From contig JAJSZT010000001.1 in assembly GCA_030272815.1 (NCBI GenBank), forward strand, positions 38,337 to 102,336: 64,000 nucleotides of DNA. Reading direction: 5' to 3'. Below the pieces are notes generated by a model that did not search any database, was not told the DNA's origin, and worked only from the letters and a program-made list of their open reading frames with translations. Every line of letters begins with the position of its first letter. Position 1 is the stretch's first letter. Positions 6,805 to 37,216 of this stretch are shown here, one piece after another. The DNA is from Deltaproteobacteria bacterium (lineage in GTDB: Bacteria > Desulfobacterota > Desulfobacteria > Desulfobacterales > ETH-SRB1). The translations under genes and the position numbers were made by a program.

Positions 6805-7644
6805 TCATTTTATCATTATATTCATACTGCCACCAACATAGCCTTCCATATCCAACGCTACATAAGAAAAAGCTAATGCCTTTAATTTATTGTTAATAAC
6901 CAGTCTAATTTTTTCATTTAATATTTTTTCAAAATCAACAGGGTCAATCTCTATTCTTGCAACTTTTCCGTGGCACCTTACACGACAAGTCTTAAAACCA
7001 AGATCTATTATGGTATTTTCAGCTTGTTCTATCATACTCAGTGCTTGTTGAGTTAAGGGAGTTCCATAGGGAATTCTGGTGGCAAAGCATGCCATTGCAG
7101 GCTTATCCCATGTGGATAAATTCATATCTTTTGAAAGCAAGCGGATATCATCTTTTGAAAGTCCTGCGTCAACCAATGGAGCAACAACACCCATTTCTTC
7201 TGCAGCCGAAAGTCCGGGTCGAAAATCATCAAGGTCATCTATGTTGGCACCGTGGGCGATAGGGGTAATGCCCATATCTGAGGCAATTTTTAAAATATCC
7301 TCAAAGAGAAGTTTTTTGCATATGTAGCATCTGTCTTTTTTGTTGGCCATAAAGCCGGAATGATTTATTTCCCTTGATTTAAATAGAATGTGCTTAATTC
7401 CAAGGTTATCGGCAAATTTTTTTGAATATTCTATTTCCCGTGATGGATGTATAGGTGAGGTTGCTGATATGGCTGCCACATTCTTTTTTAGCAATTTGTG
7501 AGCAATGGCAAGTAAAAAGGCGCTATCGACTCCGCCAGAAAATGCAACTATCAGAGAGTCGAAACCATTTATTATGGAGACCAGTCGTTCTCTTTTTTCT
7601 TTTAAGCCTAACAGTTTCTTGTTTTTCATGTTTTTTTGAACCAT
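6805..7644 (-). CDS. larE: LarE-family PP-loop ATP-dependent sulfur transferase
   Basis: PP-loop VAFSGGVDSAFLL, a DDFRPGL motif, and ACFATRIPYGTPLT plus RVRCHGKVARIEI matching the LarE C-terminal signature. 279 aa. Confidence 0.8.
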   Translation of the reverse strand: MVQKNMKNKKLLGLKEKRERLVSIINGFDSLIVAFSGGVDSAFLLAIAHKLLKKNVAAISATSPIHPSREIEYSKKFADNLGIKHILFKSREINHSGFMANKKDRCYICKKLLFEDILKIASDMGITPIAHGANIDDLDDFRPGLSAAEEMGVVAPLVDAGLSKDDIRLLSKDMNLSTWDKPAMACFATRIPYGTPLTQQALSMIEQAENTIIDLGFKTCRVRCHGKVARIEIDPVDFEKILNEKIRLVINNKLKALAFSYVALDMEGYVGGSMNIMIK

Positions 7645-22650: not shown

Positions 22651-22988
22651 ATCTGAAACTGAGACCTGATGAATAAGGGATTGAGACGACTGGCCTTCCG
22701 CTCCAAGCACGGCGCCTTTACCAGATCTGAAACTGAGACCTGATGAATAAGGGATTGAGACAAATTATCGCGGATAGCAATAATTTTTTTATTGCTTACA
22801 TCTGAAACTGAGACCTGATGAATAAGGGATTGAGACTTAATTATTGTTTCTTCTCTTATTATAGCTTTCATTTTTATCTGAAACTGAGACCTGATGAATA
22901 AGGGATTGAGACAAACATTATAGATGATGCTTCTATAGAAGTATTTTCATCATCTGAAACTGAGACCTGATGAATAAGGGATTGAGAC
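22651..22988 (+). CRISPR. CRISPR array 1: 5 x 37-bp repeat, 4 spacers (37-39 bp)
   Basis: Repeat ATCTGAAACTGAGACCTGATGAATAAGGGATTGAGAC at 22651, 22725, 22800, 22876 and 22952. Orientation is inferred from the upstream leader and the 3-prime ATTGAGAC, which fits the 8-nt Cas6 crRNA tag. Confidence 0.95.
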
Positions 22989-23263: not shown

Positions 23264-24223
23264 TTGGAAAAATTCTACTTTTCCAGATTTACGTTTTCCG
23301 TCAGATGCAAAACAACCATCTTTCTTCCATCTTACGCTGGTTCCACTCTCCGCGGCGGATTCGGCCATGCATTTCGCCGCATCATCTGTGCCTTCAAAGG
23401 CAAGGAATGCACAGATTGCCTTTTGCGGGGCCAATGTGTATATGCCTACGTCTTTGAAACACCCATTCCGGCTGATGCTCAAATAATGCGAAAATATACC
23501 GCAGCTCCTCATCCTTTTATCCTTGAACCCTTTACAAACAGCCGGAAATCCTGTCAAGAAGGAGAAGATTTCTCATTCGGCCTCACCCTGATCGGCAGGG
23601 CAACAGACTATCTACCCTATTTTATCTATGCCTTTGAAGAGCTTGGCCGTATCGGAATCGGCAAAGGCAGGGGAAAATATGAGTTGAGGGAAGTAGCTGA
23701 AGAAGGCGGCAAAGGTAACTCTCTCCAGAAAAAAAGAGTCATTTACAGTGGGGATACAAAACTCCTGACTCAAACCAATCCTCCGATACGATGGTCTGAC
23801 ATTGTTATAAACCATCCTTCGCCTCCCTCTGCAATCAGTGTCTCTTTTATCACCCCCACAAGGATCAAGTACAAAAACAGCCTCACCAAAGATCTCGAAT
23901 TTCACGTATTTTTCAGAAGCCTCCAGCGCCGCATATCGCTCCTTTCATACTTTCACTGCAACCACAGGATAGATGACACCGGATTCAAAGATCTTATTCA
24001 GCGAGCCAGGGATATTAAAATCATCAAGAGGTCGCTCTACTGGCACGACTGGGAGCGGTATTCCAACCGCCAGGAGACCCGGATGAAAATGGGGGGATTT
24101 ATGGGCGAGATTACATATGAAGGAGAGTTAAAGAAGTTCTGGCCTTATATCAAGCTGGGAGAATATGTGCATGTGGGAAAGGGGAGTGGATTTGGGTTGG
24201 GGAGGTACAGGATAGAGGAGTGA
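23264..24223 (+). CDS. cas6: Cas6-family pre-crRNA endoribonuclease (RAMP)
   Basis: STLRGGFGHAFRR near the N-terminus and a C-terminal glycine-rich loop HVGKGSGFGLGRY typical of Cas6. It lies between array 1 and the type III effector genes. Confidence 0.8.
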   Translation: MEKFYFSRFTFSVRCKTTIFLPSYAGSTLRGGFGHAFRRIICAFKGKECTDCLLRGQCVYAYVFETPIPADAQIMRKYTAAPHPFILEPFTNSRKSCQEGEDFSFGLTLIGRATDYLPYFIYAFEELGRIGIGKGRGKYELREVAEEGGKGNSLQKKRVIYSGDTKLLTQTNPPIRWSDIVINHPSPPSAISVSFITPTRIKYKNSLTKDLEFHVFFRSLQRRISLLSYFHCNHRIDDTGFKDLIQRARDIKIIKRSLYWHDWERYSNRQETRMKMGGFMGEITYEGELKKFWPYIKLGEYVHVGKGSGFGLGRYRIEE

Positions 24224-25806
24224 CTATGAATTACAGAAAACCGAAACGGATTTTTGAAGATTCCGGGACAGTTGATCCCAGAATGTCATACCATGTTGAG
24301 TTAAAGAATGTGGTTAATACAAGAAAGCAGGATATTAAAACTATGGTTGATCTGGGAAGGTACTTTTCGATATTTGCTCCCAGACAGAGCGGCAAGACTA
24401 CGTTTTTTGAAGGTTTCTGCCGCAAGCTGGAAAAAGACCCTGCCTACGCGGCCATCCTTCTTAGTTTCCAGAGATACAAGAACCTCGATATACAAAGATT
24501 TTATCAATTAGTTCAAAGAGATTTTTATAGCCAACTAACCGACAGGCTCGAAGCCGTGAATTGTCCAAAGCTGGATGCCATAAGAGCGTATCTAAATACC
24601 CATAATTTAACAGATCATATCTCGTTCAGTGAACTCTTCGAAGAATTAAACCGGAAAATAGAATTCAAGAAAATCGTTATCCTTATAGATGAATTTGACG
24701 GCATACCAATTAATGAACTGGAGAATTTCCTTACTACCTTAAGAGATCTGTATCAGAAATACAAGAAACGCACCAGTAAGGCTTTATATTCTGTCGGTCT
24801 GGTCGGTATTCGTAACATCACAAAATTGATTGTGGGCGGTGTTTCCCCCTTTAATATCGCTGATCAGGTAAAACTTCCACCTTTTACTCTAAAGAACGTC
24901 CAAGACCTTTATAACCAGTATACAGAGGAAACCAACCAGCCCTTTACCGAAGATGCAGTAAAAAAGGTATTTAATGAAACAGCCGGCCAACCCTGGCTGG
25001 TGAACCGGCTTGGGACGATTCTGACGGTTGACATAAAACCGGAAACCACGGATCCAATCACCGCAGAAGATGTGGAAAAGGGAATAATGCATCTCCTTAA
25101 AGAAAGAAACAGCCACTTCGATAATCTTTTTGAAAAAGCAAAATTGTACAAAGAGACCTTTGTACAAATCACATTTAATGGGGTTGACTATAGTCCCGAT
25201 AATGAAGATCAATCATGGCTGGAACAATATGGTCTAATCAAGGAGAAAAATAATAATGCTGTTGTGGCCAACGCAATATACAAAAGACGATTCTTAAAGG
25301 CTTTTTTTCAAGAATCCGGGGCAATCGCAGATACTTCACTTAAGGCCTATTTTACTTCCGATGGTTTTTTAAACATGAAAGCTGTTTTATCTGATTTTGA
25401 GGAATACATCATGCAGATAGGTGTAAATGCCTTTTATGCAAGCCAAAAGCCATACGAAAAGACAGGACAATTCCTGCTCACTGCCTGGCTGTATCAGTTT
25501 GTGGAACAGGGAAAAGGGGAGCTCAGTTTTGAGGTTTCAACCGGATTAGGTAGAATCGATATTCTGCTGACCTATCAAGGCAGAAAATACATTGTAGAGA
25601 CCAAAATAAATCGCTCAAGCTTTGAAAGAACTGCGCAAAAGGCGATTGATCAGCTTTGCGGCAAGTATCTTTTAACCGAGCGTGCAAATGAAGGATACGT
25701 AGTGATTTTTGATCCTAAAACAACAGTGGGTGAATTATGCACGCCGCAAGAACGGCTGGTGCAAGGGAAAAAGATATTGATCTTTAATATCGGTATAGGA
25801 AGGTAG
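24220..25806 (+). CDS. AAA-ATPase-like protein with C-terminal PD-(D/E)XK nuclease-like domain
   Basis: Walker A FAPRQSGKTTF, Walker B IVILIDEFD, and a C-terminal GRIDILLTYQGRKYIVETKI (D...ExK). The start (GTG 24220 or ATG 24226) overlaps or abuts the cas6 stop. Confidence 0.7.
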   Translation: MTMNYRKPKRIFEDSGTVDPRMSYHVELKNVVNTRKQDIKTMVDLGRYFSIFAPRQSGKTTFFEGFCRKLEKDPAYAAILLSFQRYKNLDIQRFYQLVQRDFYSQLTDRLEAVNCPKLDAIRAYLNTHNLTDHISFSELFEELNRKIEFKKIVILIDEFDGIPINELENFLTTLRDLYQKYKKRTSKALYSVGLVGIRNITKLIVGGVSPFNIADQVKLPPFTLKNVQDLYNQYTEETNQPFTEDAVKKVFNETAGQPWLVNRLGTILTVDIKPETTDPITAEDVEKGIMHLLKERNSHFDNLFEKAKLYKETFVQITFNGVDYSPDNEDQSWLEQYGLIKEKNNNAVVANAIYKRRFLKAFFQESGAIADTSLKAYFTSDGFLNMKAVLSDFEEYIMQIGVNAFYASQKPYEKTGQFLLTAWLYQFVEQGKGELSFEVSTGLGRIDILLTYQGRKYIVETKINRSSFERTAQKAIDQLCGKYLLTERANEGYVVIFDPKTTVGELCTPQERLVQGKKILIFNIGIGR

Positions 25807-26172: not shown

Positions 26173-28560
26173 ATGAATCGTATTGAACCTGTCTTAAAGG
26201 CTATCCTTATAGAGGGATTGCAAAAAGTTCGTGAGTGGTTTTTAAGAAAAAATGTTTCATACCTTCGATCAATTTTCGATCAAGTCGGCTTTATCGACAC
26301 AAATGAAATGTCGGATATCTATTATGTGCCGCCTTATAGCCTGACATCTGAGATCATATATCCGGTCAAGAGTAAGAACCCTCTCCTTGATGAGGTCAGA
26401 TCAAAAACATATAACGAAATATTTACTCAACACCACAGCTTTAATGACGATTATCTTGCCGGCCTTCCTGTAAACAGGCTCTTATTCTTGCTCGAAAAAT
26501 TTGGTGGAACCGTCCCTGTTGATGGAGACAGTACTATCTCAATATTTGATATGTACAAAATAATGGGCGCCAAAACCATTGTAAGATTAAACAGGGAAAC
26601 ACTTAAACATGAACAGGGAAACCTGATAATAAATATTGATCTGTCTGGAATACAAAGATTTATTTACAACATTGTTTCGCGAGGCGCTCTAAAAAACCTA
26701 CGATCCCGCTCTTTTTTTATCGAACTCTTATGTGGTCATGCCGTTAATCGTGTAATAAACAGTTTTAACCTGCACCAAGTTAATGTTCTTATGAATGGTG
26801 GCGGCAATGTAAAGATTCTATCAAGCAAACCTTCAAACCACAAAGAATTGCTGGATAATATCGACTGCGATATGAATTTATGGCTGTCTGAAGAATTCAA
26901 CGGGAGGTTAAATCTTGTCCTTACGTCCGTAGAAACATCTGACCGCGATATGAACGGTGACATTTCAAAATTGCTAAATAAGATTTCGGCTAAATCTTTT
27001 ATAAAGAAAAACAGGAAATTCGACTTACTTATCCAGAGAGATGAGCTTTCATTTGTAGATAAAGAGGATCCTGGCTACCAGCGCTGCGAGATATGCGGCA
27101 AGGACTTTACTCCACAAACCGGCCAAAAAAAAGCTGAGCATGAGGAAAGTTTAAGGTGTGCATTCTGTGAAAAGTTGGTGCGCCTTGGCAACATTATTCC
27201 GGAGGCAAAGTACATATATTTGTCCAAGAAAGATATGCACTGTTCTTTTCAGATACAGATAGAAGATTATTTCTATTTGCTCTCAAAAGAAAAAGAGAGG
27301 GAATTGAAGTGTGCCTGGGTCATCTTTGATAACAGAAAGGGTTTTCATGATGACCTTACTGCCTCAGAAGTTACTTTATTTGCTAGAACCTGTATAGTAA
27401 AAACCGAGATGTTGCCAAAGGATGTATATGAGCAAATTGATAAAAAAAAGAAAGAACTCAAGGTCGTGCTGAAAAAGAGCGAGGATTCTCAAGAGAAACA
27501 ATGGCTAAGAGATGAGATTGATTCTCTTTCAGATGAACATCCTGCTATGCTCGAACACCTGGCTAATTCTTCGGAAGGAGCAAAACTCATAGGCGCATTG
27601 AGAATGGATGCAGATAATATAGGAAAAATTCTGTATAAAGGGTTTTATGGAAATGCCACCCTCGAAAAAGTCTCATCATTTTCACGAAACCTTAACTACT
27701 TTTTTAAACTTTACCTGGAGTCAACTTTCAAGCCAAATAGAATTCAACAAAGGGAAAAGAGAAGATTAATCCACGTAATCTATGCCGGAGGAGACGATCT
27801 TTTTGCCCTTGGTACATGGAATGATATCGCCGAACTTTCGCTATGCATAAACAAAACTTTTGGGAAATATACCTGTCAAAATATAGACCTTGGACTCAGC
27901 GCCGGTTTTACTATCCACAAGCCTAAATTTCCTGTAAGCAAGATGGCAGATTTATCATTAGCGGCCCTGAATTATTCCAAAGACAATTTGGAGCCGTGCT
28001 GGTTTTGCCGAAAAAAATGGCTTGAATGCCCCCTTTTTAGAAATGGAAACTGTCTCAGAAAGGATTCTGTTACGCCGTTTTTTACGGAATACAAAGCAGC
28101 TCTTAAATATAGACTCGATAAGGAGTTTATCCTGAAGTATTCGTCCGAACCTTCCAGGCTGAAGTTGAGTTTCAGGCGAAAACGATTTATCAAAGAGTTA
28201 CAAAGAGTTGAAGATGAAGTTGAAAAATTCGTTTTTAAACCTTTTAAAGTATTTACTGCGGATAATGTACCCCAGCGCCGCAGCGGTTTTATGCATAACG
28301 TCTTGAACATGCTTGAAGTGTGGTATTCAGACGGTCTTATCTACCTGCCTAAAATTGCATGGCTGTTGCAAAAGCAAAGAGAAGAATTGCAACGTATAAT
28401 CGAAGAAGATACAAGAGAGTCTATGTATGATCTCTATGATCAACATCTTCACCTTGCCACACCCCGTATGCTGTCCGCACTTCACATTCCGCTATCGTGG
28501 GCAATATTGTTGATGAAAGAAGGAGGAAAGAGAGATGAATCCAGAACCAATGGAAGATAA
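26173..28560 (+). CDS. cas10: Cas10 (type III large subunit), cyclase motif intact, no recognisable HD dyad
   Basis: Palm1 IDLSGIQRFIYN and RSRSFFIELL. Zn cluster CEICGK...CAFCEK. Palm2 VIYAGGDDLFALGTW. No His-Asp dipeptide occurs in the first ~400 aa. ATG 26173 is preferred (AGAGGTGG upstream) over TTG 26134. Confidence 0.9.
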   Translation: MNRIEPVLKAILIEGLQKVREWFLRKNVSYLRSIFDQVGFIDTNEMSDIYYVPPYSLTSEIIYPVKSKNPLLDEVRSKTYNEIFTQHHSFNDDYLAGLPVNRLLFLLEKFGGTVPVDGDSTISIFDMYKIMGAKTIVRLNRETLKHEQGNLIINIDLSGIQRFIYNIVSRGALKNLRSRSFFIELLCGHAVNRVINSFNLHQVNVLMNGGGNVKILSSKPSNHKELLDNIDCDMNLWLSEEFNGRLNLVLTSVETSDRDMNGDISKLLNKISAKSFIKKNRKFDLLIQRDELSFVDKEDPGYQRCEICGKDFTPQTGQKKAEHEESLRCAFCEKLVRLGNIIPEAKYIYLSKKDMHCSFQIQIEDYFYLLSKEKERELKCAWVIFDNRKGFHDDLTASEVTLFARTCIVKTEMLPKDVYEQIDKKKKELKVVLKKSEDSQEKQWLRDEIDSLSDEHPAMLEHLANSSEGAKLIGALRMDADNIGKILYKGFYGNATLEKVSSFSRNLNYFFKLYLESTFKPNRIQQREKRRLIHVIYAGGDDLFALGTWNDIAELSLCINKTFGKYTCQNIDLGLSAGFTIHKPKFPVSKMADLSLAALNYSKDNLEPCWFCRKKWLECPLFRNGNCLRKDSVTPFFTEYKAALKYRLDKEFILKYSSEPSRLKLSFRRKRFIKELQRVEDEVEKFVFKPFKVFTADNVPQRRSGFMHNVLNMLEVWYSDGLIYLPKIAWLLQKQREELQRIIEEDTRESMYDLYDQHLHLATPRMLSALHIPLSWAILLMKEGGKRDESRTNGR

Positions 28561-29023
28561 GCTTTTAAAACAATGGAACCTTAACACGGAAAAGGATATC
28601 AAGGCAAAAATATTCGAGGACTATGCCGAAGGCGACAAACTCACACATATCCTTGACGGCGAAAAGCTTGTCGCATGCAGCTATGCACTGGGCCGGATAC
28701 TTGCGAGCTATAATGTTGGACTAAAGACAGCTCAGTTGAGACGGTTTTATGGATCATTATTGAACATAAAAGCCTCTGCAAATCGTATCAGGGCAGAGTC
28801 TGGGACTGATAACACATTTAAATCTAAGATTATTCCTCAAATACTAATGTTAAAACCATTACTCGCGAATGCAAAGGCAAGACATCGACGGGCAATAACC
28901 CCTTTTTTTGAGGTTATGAATCCGTTGTTCGATGTTGTTAAGGATGGAGATGATTACGATCGGTTTTGCGATTTTGTCGAAGCGATCGTGGCTTATCATA
29001 AGTACTGTGGCGGCAAAGACTAA
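28535..29023 (+). CDS. csm2: Csm2/Cas11-like small subunit
   Basis: 162-aa helical protein between cas10 and csm3. AGGAGG lies 8 nt upstream, and the gene overlaps the cas10 end by 26 nt. Assignment is mainly positional. Confidence 0.65.
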   Translation: MNPEPMEDKLLKQWNLNTEKDIKAKIFEDYAEGDKLTHILDGEKLVACSYALGRILASYNVGLKTAQLRRFYGSLLNIKASANRIRAESGTDNTFKSKIIPQILMLKPLLANAKARHRRAITPFFEVMNPLFDVVKDGDDYDRFCDFVEAIVAYHKYCGGKD

Positions 29024-29044: not shown

Positions 29045-29956
29045 ATGGGTCAAAACGGACAAAGAGTTTTCTTGGGAAAGGTGTTCTTTAGAGGTAAAAT
29101 TATTCTCAAAACAGGCATGCATATAGGAGGTTCTCAGGAATCAATGCAGATAGGCGGCGTTGACTCTCCAATTATCAGGGACTCAGGAAACAATCTTCCT
29201 TATATTCCTGGAAGCTCCTTAAAAGGGAAACTAAGGAGCACTCTTGAAAAATTCGGAAAAAGGATCAAAGAAGGAAAAGAAGAGAAGTTATCATCCAACA
29301 GGAGCATAGGAACATTCAGACAAAAGGTTTTTATACACTGCTGTGAAGACATTCAGCTTGCCCTTAACTGTGAGGTCTGCCGTATATTTGGTGCAACTGG
29401 AGATGATCGGGAGTTTCAAAAAGGCAAAAAAGATCGGAGAGGCGATAAAGCAGGTAACTTTCCTGCATTATTAATGGTTAGGGATTCCCTTCTTGATGAT
29501 GCCTTTATGCATCCATCCCGCCTTCTTACAGAGGTAAAAACAGAAACAGGGGTGGACAGGTCAACCATGGCGGCAAATCCGAGACAGGTAGAAAGGCTTT
29601 TGCCTGATACAGCCTTTATTTTTGAGATGGTCTATTCCGTGGAAAATATTACTTTGGCTGGAAAAGCTAAGACAAATTTTCCTGAAGCCAATCTCAAGAC
29701 CGATCTGGACAATATCCTGACATGTATGGAGATAATTGAAAGTGAGGGAATAGGTGGGCATACATCAAGGGGATACGGTAAGGTGAGTTTTGTGTTCACC
29801 GAATTTTCAGGAAGATCTCTTGACTACTTTAAGGGTAAAACAGAAAAGGAGAAAGAGAAATCTGATGGCGGCTTTTCGATTCAGGAAGCAAGGGAAAAGA
29901 TAGATGAGATTGTAAAATTGCTACAAAAGGAACCAGAAAATGCTGTTTCTGATTAA
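29045..29956 (+). CDS. csm3: Csm3/Cas7 RAMP backbone subunit
   Basis: LKTGMHIGGSQESMQIGGVDSPIIRDSGNNLPYIPGSSLKGKLRS, the Csm3 N-terminal signature including the Asp of the RNase site. Also CEVCRIFG and GGHTSRGYGKV. Confidence 0.9.
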   Translation: MGQNGQRVFLGKVFFRGKIILKTGMHIGGSQESMQIGGVDSPIIRDSGNNLPYIPGSSLKGKLRSTLEKFGKRIKEGKEEKLSSNRSIGTFRQKVFIHCCEDIQLALNCEVCRIFGATGDDREFQKGKKDRRGDKAGNFPALLMVRDSLLDDAFMHPSRLLTEVKTETGVDRSTMAANPRQVERLLPDTAFIFEMVYSVENITLAGKAKTNFPEANLKTDLDNILTCMEIIESEGIGGHTSRGYGKVSFVFTEFSGRSLDYFKGKTEKEKEKSDGGFSIQEAREKIDEIVKLLQKEPENAVSD

Positions 29957-30887
29957 GTTAAACTTTAAAGGAACGCTTGCTGTAGGAGGGAATGAGTTCG
30001 GAGAAAGCAACGTTCTCAGAGGCGCTGTTCATTCCGATACGCTATTTAGCGGCATTGTCAACCAATGGGTAAAGATACCTGCTGCATACGACATTGACCA
30101 TCTGATTTCCAAGTTGAATTCCAATTCTCCGCCTTTTAGAATATCTTCTGCTTTCCCCTATCACGGAACCGAATATTATCTGCCTATACCTCGCGGCACA
30201 GATGAACTGTACATGGACATATCAAAGGATGTTCCTTATCTCGAACTTTCGGATTTTCTCGAACTTGCAAATGGAAAGAGGGGACGCCTCGCCAAGATTC
30301 CACGAAAGAATCCTGCTGCTGAATTTATAACCGGTCTTACATCACCAAGAGTAACTATAGATAGACTTGCAAATGTTTCTAATCCTTATCAACTCACAGG
30401 ATGTAAAATGGCTGAAGGCAGCGGTCTTTATTTCCTTCTGAATATCCAGGATAAAACAATCAAAGATACCCTTGAATTATGCATCAGGATGCTCGGAGAC
30501 GCTGGCATTGGAAGTGATAGAAATGTAGGATATGGAACTTTCGATCCAGAAATCAGTCCAATATCAGACGATTCCAACTGGACGGAACTGTTTCTTGATA
30601 GAACAGGCGAAGTGATAAGTTATTGTACGCTTTCACTCTGTTGTCCTGCTAATAATAGTGAGGCTAAAGAGGCCATTTCCTACGGGATCATTTCAAGAAA
30701 CGGCTGGATACTTTCAAACTCATCTTTCGTGCAGATGAAACGAAGAGAATGCAAGATGTTTTCCGAAGGTTCTCTGTTCAAAAGTCCGATTAAGGGATGC
30801 GCGGCTGATGTTACGCCATCTGTTTTTAGACAGGAACATAATGTTTATCGCTATGGATTGGGGATGATGGTTGCGGGAGCTTGGTGA
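29940..30887 (+). CDS. csm4: Csm4/Cas5 RAMP subunit
   Basis: GAVHSDTLFSGIVNQW near the N-terminus and GDAGIGSDRNVGYGTF glycine-rich loop. Overlaps csm3 by 17 nt. Confidence 0.85.
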   Translation: MLFLIKLNFKGTLAVGGNEFGESNVLRGAVHSDTLFSGIVNQWVKIPAAYDIDHLISKLNSNSPPFRISSAFPYHGTEYYLPIPRGTDELYMDISKDVPYLELSDFLELANGKRGRLAKIPRKNPAAEFITGLTSPRVTIDRLANVSNPYQLTGCKMAEGSGLYFLLNIQDKTIKDTLELCIRMLGDAGIGSDRNVGYGTFDPEISPISDDSNWTELFLDRTGEVISYCTLSLCCPANNSEAKEAISYGIISRNGWILSNSSFVQMKRRECKMFSEGSLFKSPIKGCAADVTPSVFRQEHNVYRYGLGMMVAGAW

Positions 30888-31914
30888 GATGGAAGAATCC
30901 ACTGGACTTTTATCAGAAGTGGAAGAATTCCTGAATGACTATCGAAAAGACTTGTACAGCCTAAATGATGAGGCATGGTCGATATTTCAGGAATGCTATA
31001 GAAGTATAGGTATAGACTATGAACATTCTCATGGTTTTTTTATCGATATAGGAAAGAAAATAGAATCGATGGAGAACTTTTATAATATTAAAGCAAAATC
31101 AGAAGAACTTGAAAAAGCAAGAGCAAACTGTCTTCTGGAATATTATCAACTTGCCAGTCGCAACCCAAATCATAACCAAAAATCAGATAAATGGAATTCT
31201 TTTGCAAACAAGGTTCAAGAAATTATTAATTTGAACGAATTGGCTGTAAGTATGTTGCTGGATAAAGCAAGCACTGCCTATGAAAAAATAATAACTTGTC
31301 CATATGGTAAACAGAAAAACAAAAACATCAATGCCTCATTATTCGAAAAAAAGGTTTCGGAGTTTTTTGATTGGCTATTCATAAGTGCGTTGGGAAGGGT
31401 GGATTTAACGGAAATTGAAACCTATCGCCTGCGGAGAGACTGGGTATACAAGGTGCGTGATGAATTTGATACCTTAGAAAAGTGCGGTTTCCCATTCAGG
31501 GACATACTTATTGAATGCAAAAATTTTGCACAACCCAAGTATCCATCATTAATGCAAGTATTTGTTTACACTTTGAGCTGTCAGGATTCAGAAATATCAA
31601 AAGTGCCTCTTTCTCAGCCCAACGCCGGTAGCATACATGGGGTTGTTTACCGTCAGGATTCAGAAATATCAAAAGTGCCTCTTTCTCTGCTAATAAGCCG
31701 AAAAAACCCTGACAGAGAGAGCACCATATGGAGAATAAGACGTGCTATATTTAACAAACCTATGAAGAAAGAAACCAGACTTATTCTCTTTCTGGATGAC
31801 CACGATTTGGGCAAGATGTTAGAAAATAAGCAGAAAGGGATTGACCCCGCATTGGTATTAAAGGAAAAAATAGCAGAACTGGAAAGATCGAATATTCAAC
31901 ATGGAGGAATTTAA
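30871..31914 (+). CDS. uncharacterised protein in the csm5 position; helical N-terminal half plus possible PD-(D/E)XK nuclease core
   Basis: No RAMP G-rich loops. The candidate core is VRDEFD...FRDILIECKNF (D...ExK). It is translationally coupled on both sides (overlaps the csm4 stop; TAATG junction with the next gene). Alternative start at ATG 30889. It contains a 24-codon repeat-insert-repeat (see findings). Confidence 0.55.
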   Translation: MRELGEMEESTGLLSEVEEFLNDYRKDLYSLNDEAWSIFQECYRSIGIDYEHSHGFFIDIGKKIESMENFYNIKAKSEELEKARANCLLEYYQLASRNPNHNQKSDKWNSFANKVQEIINLNELAVSMLLDKASTAYEKIITCPYGKQKNKNINASLFEKKVSEFFDWLFISALGRVDLTEIETYRLRRDWVYKVRDEFDTLEKCGFPFRDILIECKNFAQPKYPSLMQVFVYTLSCQDSEISKVPLSQPNAGSIHGVVYRQDSEISKVPLSLLISRKNPDRESTIWRIRRAIFNKPMKKETRLILFLDDHDLGKMLENKQKGIDPALVLKEKIAELERSNIQHGGI

Positions 31915-32930
31915 TGCCACAAAAAATCGAAGTGCCTAATATCACAGTCTTTGAAGGCTTGCTCGCTATCTGGAAGCAAAGAGACTACGATTTATATTTT
32001 TATTTTAACGAAATATTTGATAAGGCACTTACAGCCCTTAAATCAAGAATAAAGGCCAGCGCAATCCAGTTGGCCACAGGAAATGAACCTGTCTATAAGG
32101 CAATGTTTCTTCCAGTTGGCTTTAAAATAGAAAATATTGCTCTTATCGCTGTTCTGTTCAGGCCGCTTCACTTGACGCTAGCCTTTTCCGAAACAACGAG
32201 AGCATGTCATAGAAGCTATTTCCATATCGTAGAGAATAAAATAAAGCAATATTGCCCTTCCGTTATAATTGACAAAATTCCTCCTATAGCCAGCGATGAT
32301 CACCACCATATGGAGAAAAAAATTAAAGACTGGGCGGAGAAGATTAAGAATGAGCACAGATATTCGAAGGCCCAACTGGCCATTGATATTACCGGCGGTA
32401 CCAAACCAATGTCCATTGGGGCACAGAATGCGGCCAAGTCGCTTGACATCCCAGCATTCTATTTGAGCGTTGATTACGATACAGATACACAACTCCCTAT
32501 CCCGGGGACTGAATCATTAGTCGAGATGCAACGGTCATATACTGATCCGGACTTGGTCTTTGTCATAATGCCTTTTAGTAGCGAATTGGATTCGGTTTAT
32601 GGGTGCATAAAAGAATCTGTTAGAGAGGTTCAATTACGATGTGTCCGGGTTGACGAAGAGGTATTTTCCGGCAGTATTATGGAAAGAGTAAGAGGAAACA
32701 TATACAAAGCAGGAATAATAATCGCAGAACTTTCAAAACATAATCCCAATGTCTATTTTGAACTTGGATTGGCATACGCCAAAAAGAAAAAGATAATTAT
32801 GATCACACAAAAGATACAGAAAGTGCCTTTTGATCTCAAGCACTTGAGAATGGTCATATATAAGCCCAACGATATTAACCGCCTAAAAGAAAAGCTTAAG
32901 ACTGAATTGGTCGCTTTGAAATCTGCCTAA
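31914..32930 (+). CDS. CARF-domain protein fused to nucleoside-2-deoxyribosyltransferase/TIR-like domain
   Basis: CARF features AMFLPVGFKIENIALIAVLF and AIDITGGTKPMSIGAQNAA. The C-terminal Rossmann-like module reads LVFVIMPF...AGIIIAELS...NPNVYFELGLAYAKKKKIIMI. Confidence 0.65.
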   Translation: MPQKIEVPNITVFEGLLAIWKQRDYDLYFYFNEIFDKALTALKSRIKASAIQLATGNEPVYKAMFLPVGFKIENIALIAVLFRPLHLTLAFSETTRACHRSYFHIVENKIKQYCPSVIIDKIPPIASDDHHHMEKKIKDWAEKIKNEHRYSKAQLAIDITGGTKPMSIGAQNAAKSLDIPAFYLSVDYDTDTQLPIPGTESLVEMQRSYTDPDLVFVIMPFSSELDSVYGCIKESVREVQLRCVRVDEEVFSGSIMERVRGNIYKAGIIIAELSKHNPNVYFELGLAYAKKKKIIMITQKIQKVPFDLKHLRMVIYKPNDINRLKEKLKTELVALKSA

Positions 32931-33114: not shown

Positions 33115-34116
33115 ATGGCCAATCTTTACCTGACAGAGCAAAACTCAATCCTCCGCAAAACCGGCGACAGACTTATTGTGCAAAAAGCCGATGAAATCCT
33201 TCTTGATGTGCAATGCCACAAGATAGATGCAGTCCTTATCTTCGGAAATGTCCAGTTCACCACTCAGGCTGTGCATGAACTTTTTGAGCATGGCATAGAA
33301 ATGGCCATTCTCTCGCGAAGAGGAAGACTGATAGGACAGATAACATCTCCAGCTACAAAAAATATCACTTTGCGCGTCCAGCAGTTTGAAAAGTACACTG
33401 ATAATGAATTCAGGCTGAAGTTGTCTATTGAAATTGTAACTGGAAAAATCAATAATTCTCTTAAAGTTATCCGTCATTTTTCTTACAATCATCCTGATAT
33501 TGCACTTAAATCCGAGACTGCTGCTTTAAAAACATCACTCGAAAACGTTAAATCTGCCAGCCGGATTGACCAACTGTTGGGACTGGAAGGAGGAGCGGCT
33601 AAGACCTATTTTAGCGCATTTGGCAAGATGATTATTGGCGAGTTCAATTTTACGGGCAGGAAAAAGCGCCCTCCCACAGATCCGGTTAATGCAATACTTT
33701 CTTTAAGCTACACAATGATCTTTAATGAAATATCATCACTTTTAGACGGGTTAGGCCTTGATCCCTATCTCGGTTATTTTCATAGCGTTGACTACGGGAG
33801 AGCATCTCTTGCCGCAGACCTTATTGAAGAATTCCGGGCGCCGATAGCTGACCGTTTTACACTCAATCTCATAAACAATCGAATTGTCGGGGAAGAAGAT
33901 TTTTACACAAATCCCAAAGGCGCCGGGGTTTATCTGAAACGTGAAGCATTAAAGCGTTATTTTACAGAATACGAAACTATGCTCAACCATGAATTTATCC
34001 ATCCGAAAACAAAGGAAAATACCACTTTTAGAAAGTGTTTTCGCTTACAGGCAGAGAATCTTGCTTTGACAATTCAAAACGACAGCTCATATATTCCTTT
34101 TGCTCTGGAGATATAG
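33115..34116 (+). CDS. cas1: Cas1 integrase
   Basis: LLGLEGGAAKTYF, RPPTDPVNAILS and GYFHSVDYGRASLAADLIEEFR (Cas1 catalytic E/H/E context). 333 aa. Confidence 0.95.
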   Translation: MANLYLTEQNSILRKTGDRLIVQKADEILLDVQCHKIDAVLIFGNVQFTTQAVHELFEHGIEMAILSRRGRLIGQITSPATKNITLRVQQFEKYTDNEFRLKLSIEIVTGKINNSLKVIRHFSYNHPDIALKSETAALKTSLENVKSASRIDQLLGLEGGAAKTYFSAFGKMIIGEFNFTGRKKRPPTDPVNAILSLSYTMIFNEISSLLDGLGLDPYLGYFHSVDYGRASLAADLIEEFRAPIADRFTLNLINNRIVGEEDFYTNPKGAGVYLKREALKRYFTEYETMLNHEFIHPKTKENTTFRKCFRLQAENLALTIQNDSSYIPFALEI

Positions 34117-34121
34117 CCTGC

Positions 34122-34397
34122 ATGTTTTACCTTGTTTCATACGACATACCCGACGACAAACGGAGAACCAAACTTGCAAAAACCATTAAGAATTTTGGAG
34201 ACAGGGTTCAATATAGTGTTTTTGAGTGCATCCTGGACAAAAACCTCCTTGACAAAATGGCAGACAGAATAGATAAAATCATCGTTGAAAAAGAAGACAG
34301 CGTACGCATCTATTGTCTTTGCGCGAACTGTGAAAGGGAAATCAGGATAATCGGCAAGGGAGAAGTGTCTAAAAACGAAGATGTGTATATAATTTAG
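34122..34397 (+). CDS. cas2: Cas2
   Basis: MFYLVSYDIPDDKRRTKLAKTIKNFGDRVQYSVFEC is a canonical Cas2 N-terminus. ATG 34122 is chosen because the upstream part of ORF 34035 overlaps cas1. Confidence 0.95.
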   Translation: MFYLVSYDIPDDKRRTKLAKTIKNFGDRVQYSVFECILDKNLLDKMADRIDKIIVEKEDSVRIYCLCANCEREIRIIGKGEVSKNEDVYII

Positions 34398-34594: not shown

Positions 34595-35237
34595 ATCTGA
34601 AACTGAGACCTGATGAATAAGGGATTGAGACTGATAAACCATGCAGCAGCATCAGTAAGATAATGATTCAATCTGAAACTGAGACCTGATGAATAAGGGA
34701 TTGAGACTTTTTTGCTAAATCAGTATATGTTTTAAAACTACCTATTATCTGAAACTGAGACCTGATGAATAAGGGATTGAGACTCGCGCCACATTAACCT
34801 GAAAACGGGAGCCAAGTTATCATCTGAAACTGAGACCTGATGAATAAGGGATTGAGACTTTTAAAAGTATTGCCATTTATACCAAGTCCGTTACTCTATC
34901 TGAAACTGAGACCTGATGAATAAGGGATTGAGACCTGGGGGGTTATAAATGCATACATCAGAGATTTGTTTATCTGAAACTGAGACCTGATGAATAAGGG
35001 ATTGAGACTGTTGCAGAGCTATTTATACCTGCCTGGATACCATCAATTATCTGAAACTGAGACCTGATGAATAAGGGATTGAGACTATGTAAGCTCCGAT
35101 GTTCTGTTTATAATCTCGTTGATCTGAAACTGAGACCTGATGAATAAGGGATTGAGACTCCGTAAACACCTTGCTGTTGTTAAACCCGGCAGTTCCTATC
35201 ATCTGAAACTGAGACCTGATGAATAAGGGATTGAGCG
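34595..35237 (+). CRISPR. CRISPR array 2: 9 repeats (last one degenerate), 8 spacers (36-42 bp)
   Basis: Repeats start at 34595, 34671, 34747, 34822, 34898, 34972, 35049, 35122 and 35201. The terminal repeat ends ...gattgagcg instead of ...gattgagac. Confidence 0.95.
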
Positions 35238-35298: not shown

Positions 35299-35385
35299 AT
35301 GGGGAAGATAGAATCTTTCAGGGAGTTAACTGTTTGGCAAAAATCCCATCAGTTATTTTTGGATATTGCAAATGATGTGGAATGA
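35299..35385 (+). pseudogene. 5-prime fragment of a four-helix-bundle (23S rRNA IVS/Avd-like) gene in the array trailer
   Basis: Encodes MGKIESFRELTVWQKSHQLFLDIANDVE then a stop, matching the family N-terminus (F..L.VWQKa..L). It is preceded by tandem gtag(a/g)gat motifs. Homologous trailer pieces lie at 22989..23033 and 38204..38349. Confidence 0.6.
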
Positions 35386-35429
35386 TGAATGATGAAAGCG
35401 GAATGATGAATAATAAGGAGGTAAATAGC

Positions 35430-35684
35430 ATGGAGGATGTCTTAACCATCCATATTCCTGACGAAATTCGGCAGAAGCTAAATCGCACGCCCGAAGAAAT
35501 GTGCCGTGATATTCGCATTTACGCTGCATTAATGCTTTTCCGTCTCGGGAAATTATCTTCAGGAGCGGCGGCATTAATGGCGGGAATTCCCCGCGTGATG
35601 TTCCTGGATCTGTGTGCGGAATATAATATTCCTATCTCGCAAATCACTCCGGAGGAACTACGTCGAGAGGTAAGCGATGCATAA
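35430..35684 (+). CDS. UPF0175-family antitoxin
   Basis: LRIYAALMLFRLGKLSSGAAALMAGIPRVMFLDLCAEYNIP is typical of UPF0175. AAGGAGG precedes ATG 35430, and the gene overlaps the PIN gene by 8 nt. Confidence 0.75.
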   Translation: MEDVLTIHIPDEIRQKLNRTPEEMCRDIRIYAALMLFRLGKLSSGAAALMAGIPRVMFLDLCAEYNIPISQITPEELRREVSDA

Positions 35685-36177
35685 ACAGTCATTAGTTTGT
35701 GACACATCGCTGCTGCTATACTTAGGACGTATGGAGAACGAAGACCTTCTTCGGGTGTTGTTTGAAAAAGTATATGTGACGGAACAGGTAGCCCTTGAAC
35801 TGGATGCCGGGCGTTTGCTACGAAGCGATACTATTAATCCCCGCTTGTTTGATTGGATAACATTGATATCGATTTCTCAGGAAGAAATGGATACTTTGCC
35901 CCCAAATCGGTTGGGAATTGGCGAGCAGTTAGTCATCGCTTATGCAAGAATCCACGCTAACTGTGTGGTAGGGCTCGATGATCGACAGGCTCGAATTCTG
36001 GCAGAACACCTTGGTCTAAAAGTGGTTGGCGTGATTGGTATTTTGTTGAAAGCAAAACGTGCAGGGTTGCTTTCTTCCGTACGTCCTTTTTTGGAGGCTG
36101 CCCAGGCTCATGGCTTTCGCATGGCCAAAGAATTGTACGAGGAAGCAGTACGATTGGCTGGAGAAGAAAATGAGTAA
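35677..36177 (+). CDS. PIN-like (DUF3368-type) toxin
   Basis: LVCDTSLLLYLGRMENEDLL at the N-terminus (acidic PIN residue context) and VVGLDDRQAR. 166 aa, paired with the UPF0175 gene. Confidence 0.7.
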   Translation: MHKQSLVCDTSLLLYLGRMENEDLLRVLFEKVYVTEQVALELDAGRLLRSDTINPRLFDWITLISISQEEMDTLPPNRLGIGEQLVIAYARIHANCVVGLDDRQARILAEHLGLKVVGVIGILLKAKRAGLLSSVRPFLEAAQAHGFRMAKELYEEAVRLAGEENE

Positions 36178-36877: not shown

Positions 36878-37216
36878 ATCTGAAACTGAGACCTGATGAA
36901 TAAGGGATTGAGACATGTTTTATAGCTTCCCAAAAATGTGTAACTTGATCAGATCTGAAACTGAGACCTGATGAATAAGGGATTGAGACGCAATATATCC
37001 CTGAACTTTGCCAAGATATAGATCAATTATCTGAAACTGAGACCTGATGAATAAGGGATTGAGACTTCGTTTTTTCTAACTGTTGGACCAACTGTTCCCG
37101 CTGTATCTGAAACTGAGACCTGATGAATAAGGGATTGAGACACAAAGAACTGAAATAGAGATTGTGCTCGTTTGTTAGAATCTGAAACTGAGACCTGATG
37201 AATAAGGGATTGAGAC
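36878..37216 (+). CRISPR. CRISPR array 3: 5 repeats, 4 spacers (38-39 bp), 3-prime end disrupted
   Basis: Repeats start at 36878, 36953, 37029, 37105 and 37180. There is no degenerate terminal repeat or trailer directly after 37216. Confidence 0.95.

Follow-up and report, generated by a model that had tools for sequence, protein, structure and literature searches.

A predicted Mrr-type nuclease occupies the csm5 position in a distinct csm5-less type III-A-like CRISPR variant

The question raised by the type III CRISPR locus of a Deltaproteobacteria bacterium is which protein stands in the place of Csm5, and what this protein contributes to immunity. The locus lies in a 64,000-nucleotide (nt) stretch of DNA (GenBank assembly GCA_030272815.1, contig JAJSZT010000001.1, positions 38,337 to 102,336 of the forward strand), which is called the window here and supplies the coordinates given below. 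Effector swapping is known in type III CRISPR systems; the Csm core, namely, Cas10 and Csm2 to Csm5, is usually taken as fixed. Ancillary type III effectors are usually recognised through a CARF or SAVED sensor domain. An initial annotation of the window had described an open reading frame (ORF) at 30871-31914 on the forward strand, between csm4 and a CARF gene, with a possible nuclease core, and this ORF exists; its description holds in the main, with the corrections given below. In this study, the ORF, referred to as X (30889-31914, +; residues numbered in the 341-amino-acid (aa) form), was investigated by comparing gene order, sequence profiles and predicted structure. X marks a distinct csm5-less type III-A-like variant with the arrangement cas6-cas10-csm2-csm3-csm4-X-CARF/TIR-like, in which Cas10 has an intact GGDD motif and no conserved HD motif. 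X is probably an uncharacterised nuclease arm of this immune system, because it is always found with one particular CARF/TIR-like partner gene.

The gene order of the variant is conserved. The order csm3-csm4-X-CARF/TIR-like was found wherever both flanks were present in about 29 locus records (L001-L013, L016-L019 and L027-L038), which come from bacterial metagenome-assembled genomes (MAGs) and one archaeal MAG, and the junctions of X were tight on both sides. Homologues of X lay between csm4 and the same CARF gene in L001-L010 and in the GTDB genomes L011, L012 (a Desulfomonilia MAG) and L013, and again in twelve metagenome loci (L027-L038). A search by the CARF protein returned 94 clusters; four of these loci were opened (L016-L019, CARF 41-47% identical), one of them from a Methanobacteriota archaeon MAG, and all had an X-family gene directly upstream. 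The co-occurrence of X and the CARF gene, which the initial annotation had suggested examining, was strict, also in the loci found via the CARF protein alone. Three independent routes, which started from X homologues, from CARF homologues and from scans of genomes and metagenomes, all led to X in the same slot, and the option of an unrelated insertion, left standing earlier, is rejected. Since the slot is the same in every locus found, X is considered a fixed gene of a csm5-less type III-A variant, and the family was seen in type III operons only.

The position that X occupies is that of csm5. A search with Csm4 delimited a clade at 40-91% identity, followed by a gap, and the nearest outgroup loci (L020 and L021, Csm4 identity 36% and 34%) had the order cas10-csm2-csm3-csm4-Csm5-effector, with TIGR01899 matched at expectation values (E) of 4e-33 and 9e-30. 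The outgroups carry genuine Csm5 directly after csm4, so the earlier statement that a non-RAMP protein sits in the csm5 position is upheld. The pair of X and the CARF/TIR-like gene stands where csm5 and csm6 stand in canonical type III-A. Neither the window (64 kb) nor any of L012, L013 and L016, which are 20-kb loci, holds a Csm5. When a hidden Markov model (HMM) of Csm5, built from the outgroup loci, was run with filters off over the window and every fetched locus, it gave Csm3 cross-matches only, and X was not matched; in hhalign, X scored a probability of 0.1-0.2% against Csm5 and Csm2. The absence of RAMP features noted at the outset was likewise borne out, with no library match, no Csm5 signal and an AlphaFold2 (AF2) model that is not ferredoxin- or RRM-like. 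A divergent Csm5 or Cas11 was ruled out as the identity of X by the missing RAMP/Csm5 profile signal and the model that is not RRM-like. A weak Cmr5 match of the N-domain of one family member (E 0.016) was set aside as well, as it was not reproduced by hhalign against Csm2 (0.2%).

X is a real gene, and it likely starts at ATG 30889 (341 aa) rather than at TTG 30871. The TTG is merely the first possible start and would add 6 residues. The public gene call P0001 (341 aa, 100% identical, 'MAG: hypothetical protein LWX51_00310 [Deltaproteobacteria bacterium]') begins at ATG 30889, every orthologue begins at the same MEE..., and a GGAG at 30877-30880 lies 9-12 nt before this ATG. The Cas5-like csm4 (29940..30887, +; TIGR01903, E 3.5e-67) is directly 5' of X. 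Its stop codon TGA (30885-30887) is followed by a single base (30888) and then the ATG of X, and the same 1-base spacing occurs in L001 and L005. The overlap with csm4 that had been described needs the unlikely TTG start, and none is left from ATG 30889; the TAATG junction between X and the CARF gene is present at 31912-31916.

The X family is rare. A word-indexed search of 5.8 billion proteins returned just 16 relatives of X, all unnamed, and a profile search of 1.84 billion representatives returned 87 proteins at E<=1e-3, 40 of them at E<=1e-10, which amounts to about 40 clusters at 50% identity among these representatives. An HMM from 31 family members scored E 7e-122 on the window ORF. X had no match among the PDB sequences, and sequence and profile searches of the PDB with the X family gave helical-bundle noise only.

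The predicted structure of X comprises two domains. The AF2 model, built with 13 homologues, had a predicted local distance difference test (pLDDT) score of 80 and a predicted template-modelling score of 0.80. The N-terminal four-helix domain (aa 1-136; 30889..31296, +) has helices at residues 10-38, 44-62, 67-90 and 102-136, with mean pLDDT over 10-residue blocks mostly 72-96. The C-terminal domain (aa 137-341; 31297..31911, +), which opens with a conserved CPxG, was assigned by DSSP as H145-163, E168-170, E185-189, E205-210, H218-236, E265-269, H279-289 and E298-302. The predicted order alpha-beta-beta-beta-alpha-beta is that of restriction-endonuclease-like enzymes, and a model of the domain alone gave the same order. 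The N-terminal ~180 aa had been called helical, which holds as far as residue 163; the first strand begins at residue 168.

The putative active site was located in an alignment of 31 family members that are 20-75% identical to P0002, with a mean column identity of 27%. Invariant in these relatives are D184, E209, K211, N212, Q223, Y227 and one Arg. As these are just 7 of about 314 columns at such low mean identity, the D...ExK arrangement is not attributed to chance. In the predicted fold, D184 (in RRDWVY; codon 31438..31440, +), the predicted metal ligand, lies at the start of strand 2, and E209-x-K211 (in IECKNF) lies at the end of strand 3; the E209-C-K211-N212 codons occupy 31513..31524 (+), with E209 at 31513-31515 and K211 at 31519-31521. 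The invariant Q...Y pair falls in the helix after strand 3 (Q223 to Y227 codons, 31555..31569, +). The initial annotation had read the core as VRDEFD...FRDILIECKNF. The ExK of IECKNF is indeed invariant, the Asp residues of VRDEFD and FRDIL are variable, and the invariant Asp is D184. The broader proposal of a nuclease-like core in the C-terminal half is supported by the PD-(D/E)XK topology, the invariant D...ExK and a transitive profile link to Mrr_cat.

This link runs through a candidate-defence family. The weaker profile-search matches (P0056-P0101) align to the C-domain of X alone, and the C-domain of 37 of 38 such distant relatives matches the PADLOC candidate-defence model PDC-M36A. In hhalign, the X C-domain against the PDC-M36A-type C-domain gave 99.7-99.8% (E 1e-26 to 1e-28), and the latter against an independent Mrr_cat alignment of 13 Pfam-supported segments gave 93% (E 3.5e-7), with the helix-1 Glu, the Asp and the ExK in register; the negative controls (Csm2 and Csm5) gave 0.1-0.4%. 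One X family member matches Tox-REase-7 (E 0.005), and the X-like domain of one relative matches Mrr_cat (E 0.001). On this sequence evidence, the C-domain of X is probably a divergent PD-(D/E)XK domain of the Mrr type whose active site is intact. Pfam Mrr_cat was also matched by 14 of the 38 weaker relatives; these matches were dropped as direct proof for X, since they sit in the N-terminal parts of the relatives, outside the X-like domain. The PDC-M36A HMM gave no match at E<=1 to X or to seven members of its family, so that the relationship is one of profile-profile homology of the C-domain alone.

Proteins of the PDC-M36A type combine a constant X-like C-domain with a variable N-domain (Mrr_cat, HNH, Macro, proteasome-like, ResIII or QueC). 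Outside CRISPR, the X-like domain is a module of stand-alone candidate defence proteins and not of Cas complexes. On the plasmid pAt of Agrobacterium fabrum (L014, 2270-5552), a single gene, for a 253-aa hypothetical protein, separates a SIR2-like gene from a PDC-M36A-like gene downstream of it; the other PDC-M36A gene neighbourhoods on plasmids were uninformative as to partners. A literature search found no paper that mentions PDC-M36.

The Cas10 of the operon suggests signalling. The cas10/csm1 gene (26173..28560, +) matches TIGR02578 (E 1.7e-115, from model position 93) and is followed by csm2 (28535-29023, +) and csm3 (29045-29956, +), both assigned by library domain and family matches. 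An alignment of the Cas10 proteins of seven clade members showed that they share neither an HD dyad nor any other conserved cluster of His/Asp in their first 160 residues; all seven have the GGDD cyclase motif. Hence signalling is expected and Cas10 DNase activity is not; the earlier suggestion of a nuclease that could replace Cas10-HD function agrees with this absence of a conserved HD motif. The partner gene (31914..32930, +) encodes a 338-aa protein whose N-terminal CARF domain matches CARF_Card1 and many PADLOC CARF models, and whose C-terminal TIR/NDT-like domain matches Nuc_deoxyrib_tr, CAP12-PCTIR_TIR and the PADLOC model 'Effector TIR'. No solved relative of the partner was found, nor any sequence match to the Cat1 structures in the PDB; identity with Cat1 was ruled out because of this and the opposite domain order. 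In P0187 and P0189, the TIR-like domain of the partner (IMPF...HNPNVYYE.G.AH) occurs in fusions with Mrr_cat nuclease domains, which provides a link of the Rosetta-stone type between this TIR-like domain and a nuclease.

Comparison with known systems sets X apart. The Mrr_cat family (PF04471) shares with X the predicted alpha-beta-beta-beta-alpha-beta core, the Asp at strand 2 and the ExK at strand 3; unlike Mrr_cat, X has the additional conserved CPxG, an invariant KN(Y/F), Q...Y and SRxNP, a C-terminal helical extension (LILFLDxxDLxxM...DPA) and a four-helix N-domain instead of a DNA-recognition domain. PDC-M36A proteins, which are candidate phage-defence proteins of unknown mechanism, have a homologous C-domain, but they carry enzymatic or other N-domains and lie outside CRISPR loci, whereas X has a helical N-domain and occurs in type III operons only. 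Csm5 (TIGR01899) resembles X in its gene position after csm4 and before the gene of an effector responding to cyclic oligoadenylate (cOA), and roughly in length (360-410 aa versus about 340 aa for X); X differs from it in having no RAMP fold, G-rich loop or profile similarity, and in having a nuclease-type active site that Csm5 lacks. Card1, Can1 and Can2 (Crf4) also place a PD-(D/E)XK nuclease in a cOA-signalling type III locus, and the CARF domain next to X matches CARF_Card1. Sensor and nuclease are on one polypeptide in Card1 and Can2, whereas X is devoid of CARF and the adjacent CARF protein bears the TIR/NDT-like domain; no sequence relation between X and the Card1/Can2 nuclease domains was detectable. 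The partner of X resembles the TIR-CARF NADase Cat1 (PMC12162218) and TIR-SAVED/TSR1 in fusing a cOA sensor to a TIR-type domain in type III loci. However, Cat1 is a protein of 258 aa with an N-terminal TIR and a C-terminal CARF, and the 338-aa partner has the reverse order. A search of the Cat1 paper (PMC12162218) by keyword gave no companion nuclease.

No part of the operon evolves faster than the poorly conserved N-domain. In a comparison of the window with L001, this domain is 52% identical (30889-31296 versus 7167-7570), while Csm3 and CARF are 97-98% identical, and Csm2, Csm3, Csm4 and CARF together range over 90-98%. The nonsynonymous divergence (dN) of this domain was 0.36 and the synonymous divergence (dS) 0.70, that is, a dN/dS of 0.51, compared with 0.08-0.27 for the neighbouring genes; dN and dS each greatly exceed those of the neighbours, which suggests a recombined, fast-evolving module. 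Purifying selection acts on the X family overall, with a dN/dS of 0.2 for the C-domain. For the N-domain, positive selection was rejected, as dN/dS (0.3-0.5) is raised yet below 1. The uneven dS across the operon genes suggests recombination. The divergence of the N-domain points to recombination together with relaxed or diversifying constraint, and the domain may self-associate or face a variable, possibly viral, ligand.

The window copy of X is itself unusual. It contains an in-frame 72-nt insertion (feature 31580..31687, +), in which two identical direct copies of 36 nt (31580-31615 = 31652-31687) enclose a unique 36-nt segment (31616-31651). The insertion adds 24 aa to the loop that leads from the helix after strand 3 to strand 4, where pLDDT is below 50 (residues 233-261). 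No homologue of X has it. The catalytic residues are preserved, as is the ancestral sequence at the entry to strand 4. With the 37-nt repeats and the 36-42-nt spacers of the locus, the geometry fits an ectopic spacer integration by Cas1-Cas2; cas1-cas2 are found 1.2 kb downstream. An off-target spacer integration is put forward as speculation, with mis-assembly as a candidate alternative; no exact match to the 36-nt insert, as a protospacer, was found in viral contigs or in the window. In another locus (L034, 2431-3447), X is split right after ECKNY by an opposite-strand transposase gene of the IS1595 family (DDE_Tnp_IS1595, E 1.5e-31).

We infer that X is a metal-dependent endonuclease and the nucleic-acid-cleaving arm of the variant, and likewise its activity, substrate and activation route. 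For the route, we tentatively prefer, at somewhat less than an even chance, that X is the obligate second subunit of a two-gene cOA effector with the CARF/TIR-like protein. In this mechanism, binding of target RNA by the Csm complex would switch on the Cas10 cyclase, and the resulting cOA would bind the partner's CARF domain. Lacking a sensor domain itself, X would be a Mg-dependent endonuclease and the obligate second subunit of the two-gene module; with the CARF/TIR-like protein activated or assembled, X would cut nucleic acid and so provide the nuclease arm missing from the HD-less Cas10, while the TIR-like domain would attack NAD+ (nicotinamide adenine dinucleotide) or another nucleotide. 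This partner route is slightly favoured over binding to the Csm complex because the X-like domain elsewhere is a stand-alone defence module, because fusions of restriction-endonuclease domains with this TIR-like domain occur in other proteins, and because multi-gene cOA effector modules have precedent. Several observations weigh against it. X matches no curated family directly in Pfam, NCBIfam or PADLOC, and hhalign of its C-domain against Mrr_cat directly is weak (5.9%, E 0.0065). The suggested check by structure prediction and Foldseek gave a partial confirmation: the model is not of the RAMP/ferredoxin type and has a predicted nuclease-like site, and no structural match came at E<1e-3. The best Foldseek matches, though non-significant, speak for the fold, being restriction-endonuclease-fold proteins (the N-domain of Rpb5, FokI, EndoMS, McrC, Shedu and NucC). 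Motif, topology and profile links, and not a structural match, thus underlie the proposed fold assignment. Library scans found no CARF, SAVED or other recognisable sensor domain in X, which leaves its control unexplained. Two of about 29 copies are interrupted (the window insertion and the IS1595 element in L034), the divergence of the N-domain beside a 98% identical CARF is not expected of a conserved X-CARF interface, and the co-occurrence of the two genes fits a Csm-complex subunit equally well, with the whole operon moving as a unit.

The last point leads to the strongest rival, in which X has taken over from Csm5 as a structural part of the Csm complex, its N-domain docks at the 3' end of the CRISPR RNA (crRNA) or at the end of the Csm2 filament, and its nuclease, RNA-guided and target-activated, replaces both Csm5 and the HD domain of Cas10. 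In favour of this, X fills precisely the position of csm5, separated from csm4 by 1 nt; the loci of the nearest Csm4 outgroups (34-36% identity) have a true Csm5 at that place; and Cas10 has no conserved HD motif. In addition, no Csm5 is present in the window or the three 20-kb loci, and the clade is nevertheless widely diversified (Csm4 40-91% identity, one archaeal MAG), which implies that the complex works without Csm5 or with a substitute. However, X is not a RAMP protein and is unlike Csm5 and Csm2, and hence could not extend the Cas7 backbone in the usual way; its N-domain is 52% identical while Csm2, Csm3 and Csm4 stay at 90-97%; the same order would result, with no structural role involved, if csm5-csm6 had been exchanged for X-CARF as one cassette; and the X-like domain is typical of stand-alone defence proteins. 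We regard this subunit role as possible though doubtful, and the specific form in which X docks on the Csm ribonucleoprotein as a non-RAMP, Mrr-like nuclease cap, switched by target RNA and replacing Csm5 and the Cas10 HD DNase, as rather unlikely. The divergence of the N-domain is explained by neither the partner route nor the complex route. An RNA-processing or signal-resetting role, namely, crRNA 3' trimming or cOA linearisation by a ring nuclease, appears improbable. Csm5 of staphylococci reportedly recruits host nucleases for crRNA 3' trimming, and some PD-(D/E)XK enzymes cut RNA; we know of no ring nuclease of the PD-(D/E)XK fold. The locus combines an active-looking cyclase with no recognised ring nuclease in Pfam, NCBIfam and PADLOC scans; most cOA-producing loci encode one (PMC12669027), and some nucleases of the Crf4/Can2 type cleave both DNA and RNA (PMC12669027). 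PMC9762709 describes a part played by Csm5 in crRNA maturation. Against this role of X, cOA could be degraded by the partner's own CARF domain, and nothing in the sequence favours RNA or cOA over DNA. A Crn4-like ring nuclease was excluded as the identity of X, since Crn4 is a small dimer of a novel, unrelated fold and X matches no ring nuclease family. It is slightly more improbable still that X is inert or decaying in this genome, its nuclease domain damaged by the 24-aa insertion: the window copy alone has this insertion in the domain core with pLDDT below 50, and the L034 copy is split, but the insertion is in frame and in a loop, the catalytic residues and the strand 4 lead-in are intact, and the family is under purifying selection (C-domain dN/dS 0.2). 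The least likely proposal makes X a second-tier receiver, switched on by an NAD-derived messenger from the cOA-activated TIR-like domain. Thoeris TIR proteins make such a messenger, X is strictly paired with a TIR/NDT-like enzyme, one relative with an X-like domain (P0071) is fused to a Macro (ADP-ribose-binding) domain, and a PDC-M36A-like gene lies near a SIR2-like gene on Agrobacterium pAt. Nevertheless, the Macro and SIR2 contexts are single and anecdotal, other PDC-M36A contexts are uninformative, and X has no recognisable nucleotide-binding pocket or domain and a poorly conserved N-domain.

The other features of the locus complete the map of the window. The operon is preceded by cas6 (23264..24223, +; library domain and family matches). 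Between cas6 and cas10, at 24220-25806, lies a gene for a 528-aa AAA_35/AAA-ATPase_like protein with a C-terminal PDDEXK_9 domain, the start of which overlaps the cas6 stop; L001 and L002 retain a 101-aa PDDEXK_9 remnant alone at this place, and the other loci are without it. Downstream of the CARF/TIR-like gene are cas1 (33115-34116, +) and cas2 (about 34098-34397, +), followed by a CRISPR array with 37-nt repeats and 36-42-nt spacers (34595..35237, +). Sister arrays are located at 22651-22988 and 36878-37216, and one 37-nt repeat (ATCTGAAACTGAGACCTGATGAATAAGGGATTGAGAC) is common to all three arrays of the window. The last repeat of the middle array (35201-35237) is degenerate, which is consistent with a leader beside cas2. 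A UPF0175/DUF3368 (PIN-like) gene pair with overlapping stop and start, likely a toxin-antitoxin module, lies between the second and third arrays (35382-36177).

Neither the 2025 text on CRISPR classification nor the survey of type III effectors names the X family or variant, full-text literature searches gave no name for it, and the literature yielded no named csm5-less variant and no CARF-TIR protein with a nuclease partner. We regard the X operon as a derivative of type III-A that carries a new family of Cas-associated nucleases. A clade across bacterial and archaeal MAGs has lost Csm5 and has fixed a sensor-less nuclease-type protein instead. Current annotation pipelines call X hypothetical, and sensor-based effector searches would miss it. 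The operon also gives the first functional context for the PDC-M36A-type domain of candidate defence genes. The variant is compact, experimentally tractable, clearly delimited and conserved, yet rare, with a mechanism that we infer. If X is bound to the complex, it would represent a new way of arming an HD-less Cas10 complex, and with docking on Csm, a PD-(D/E)XK nuclease would for the first time be an integral subunit of a type III complex. If X instead pairs with the CARF/TIR-like protein, the two would constitute a two-protein cOA effector that joins nucleotide depletion with nucleic-acid cleavage.

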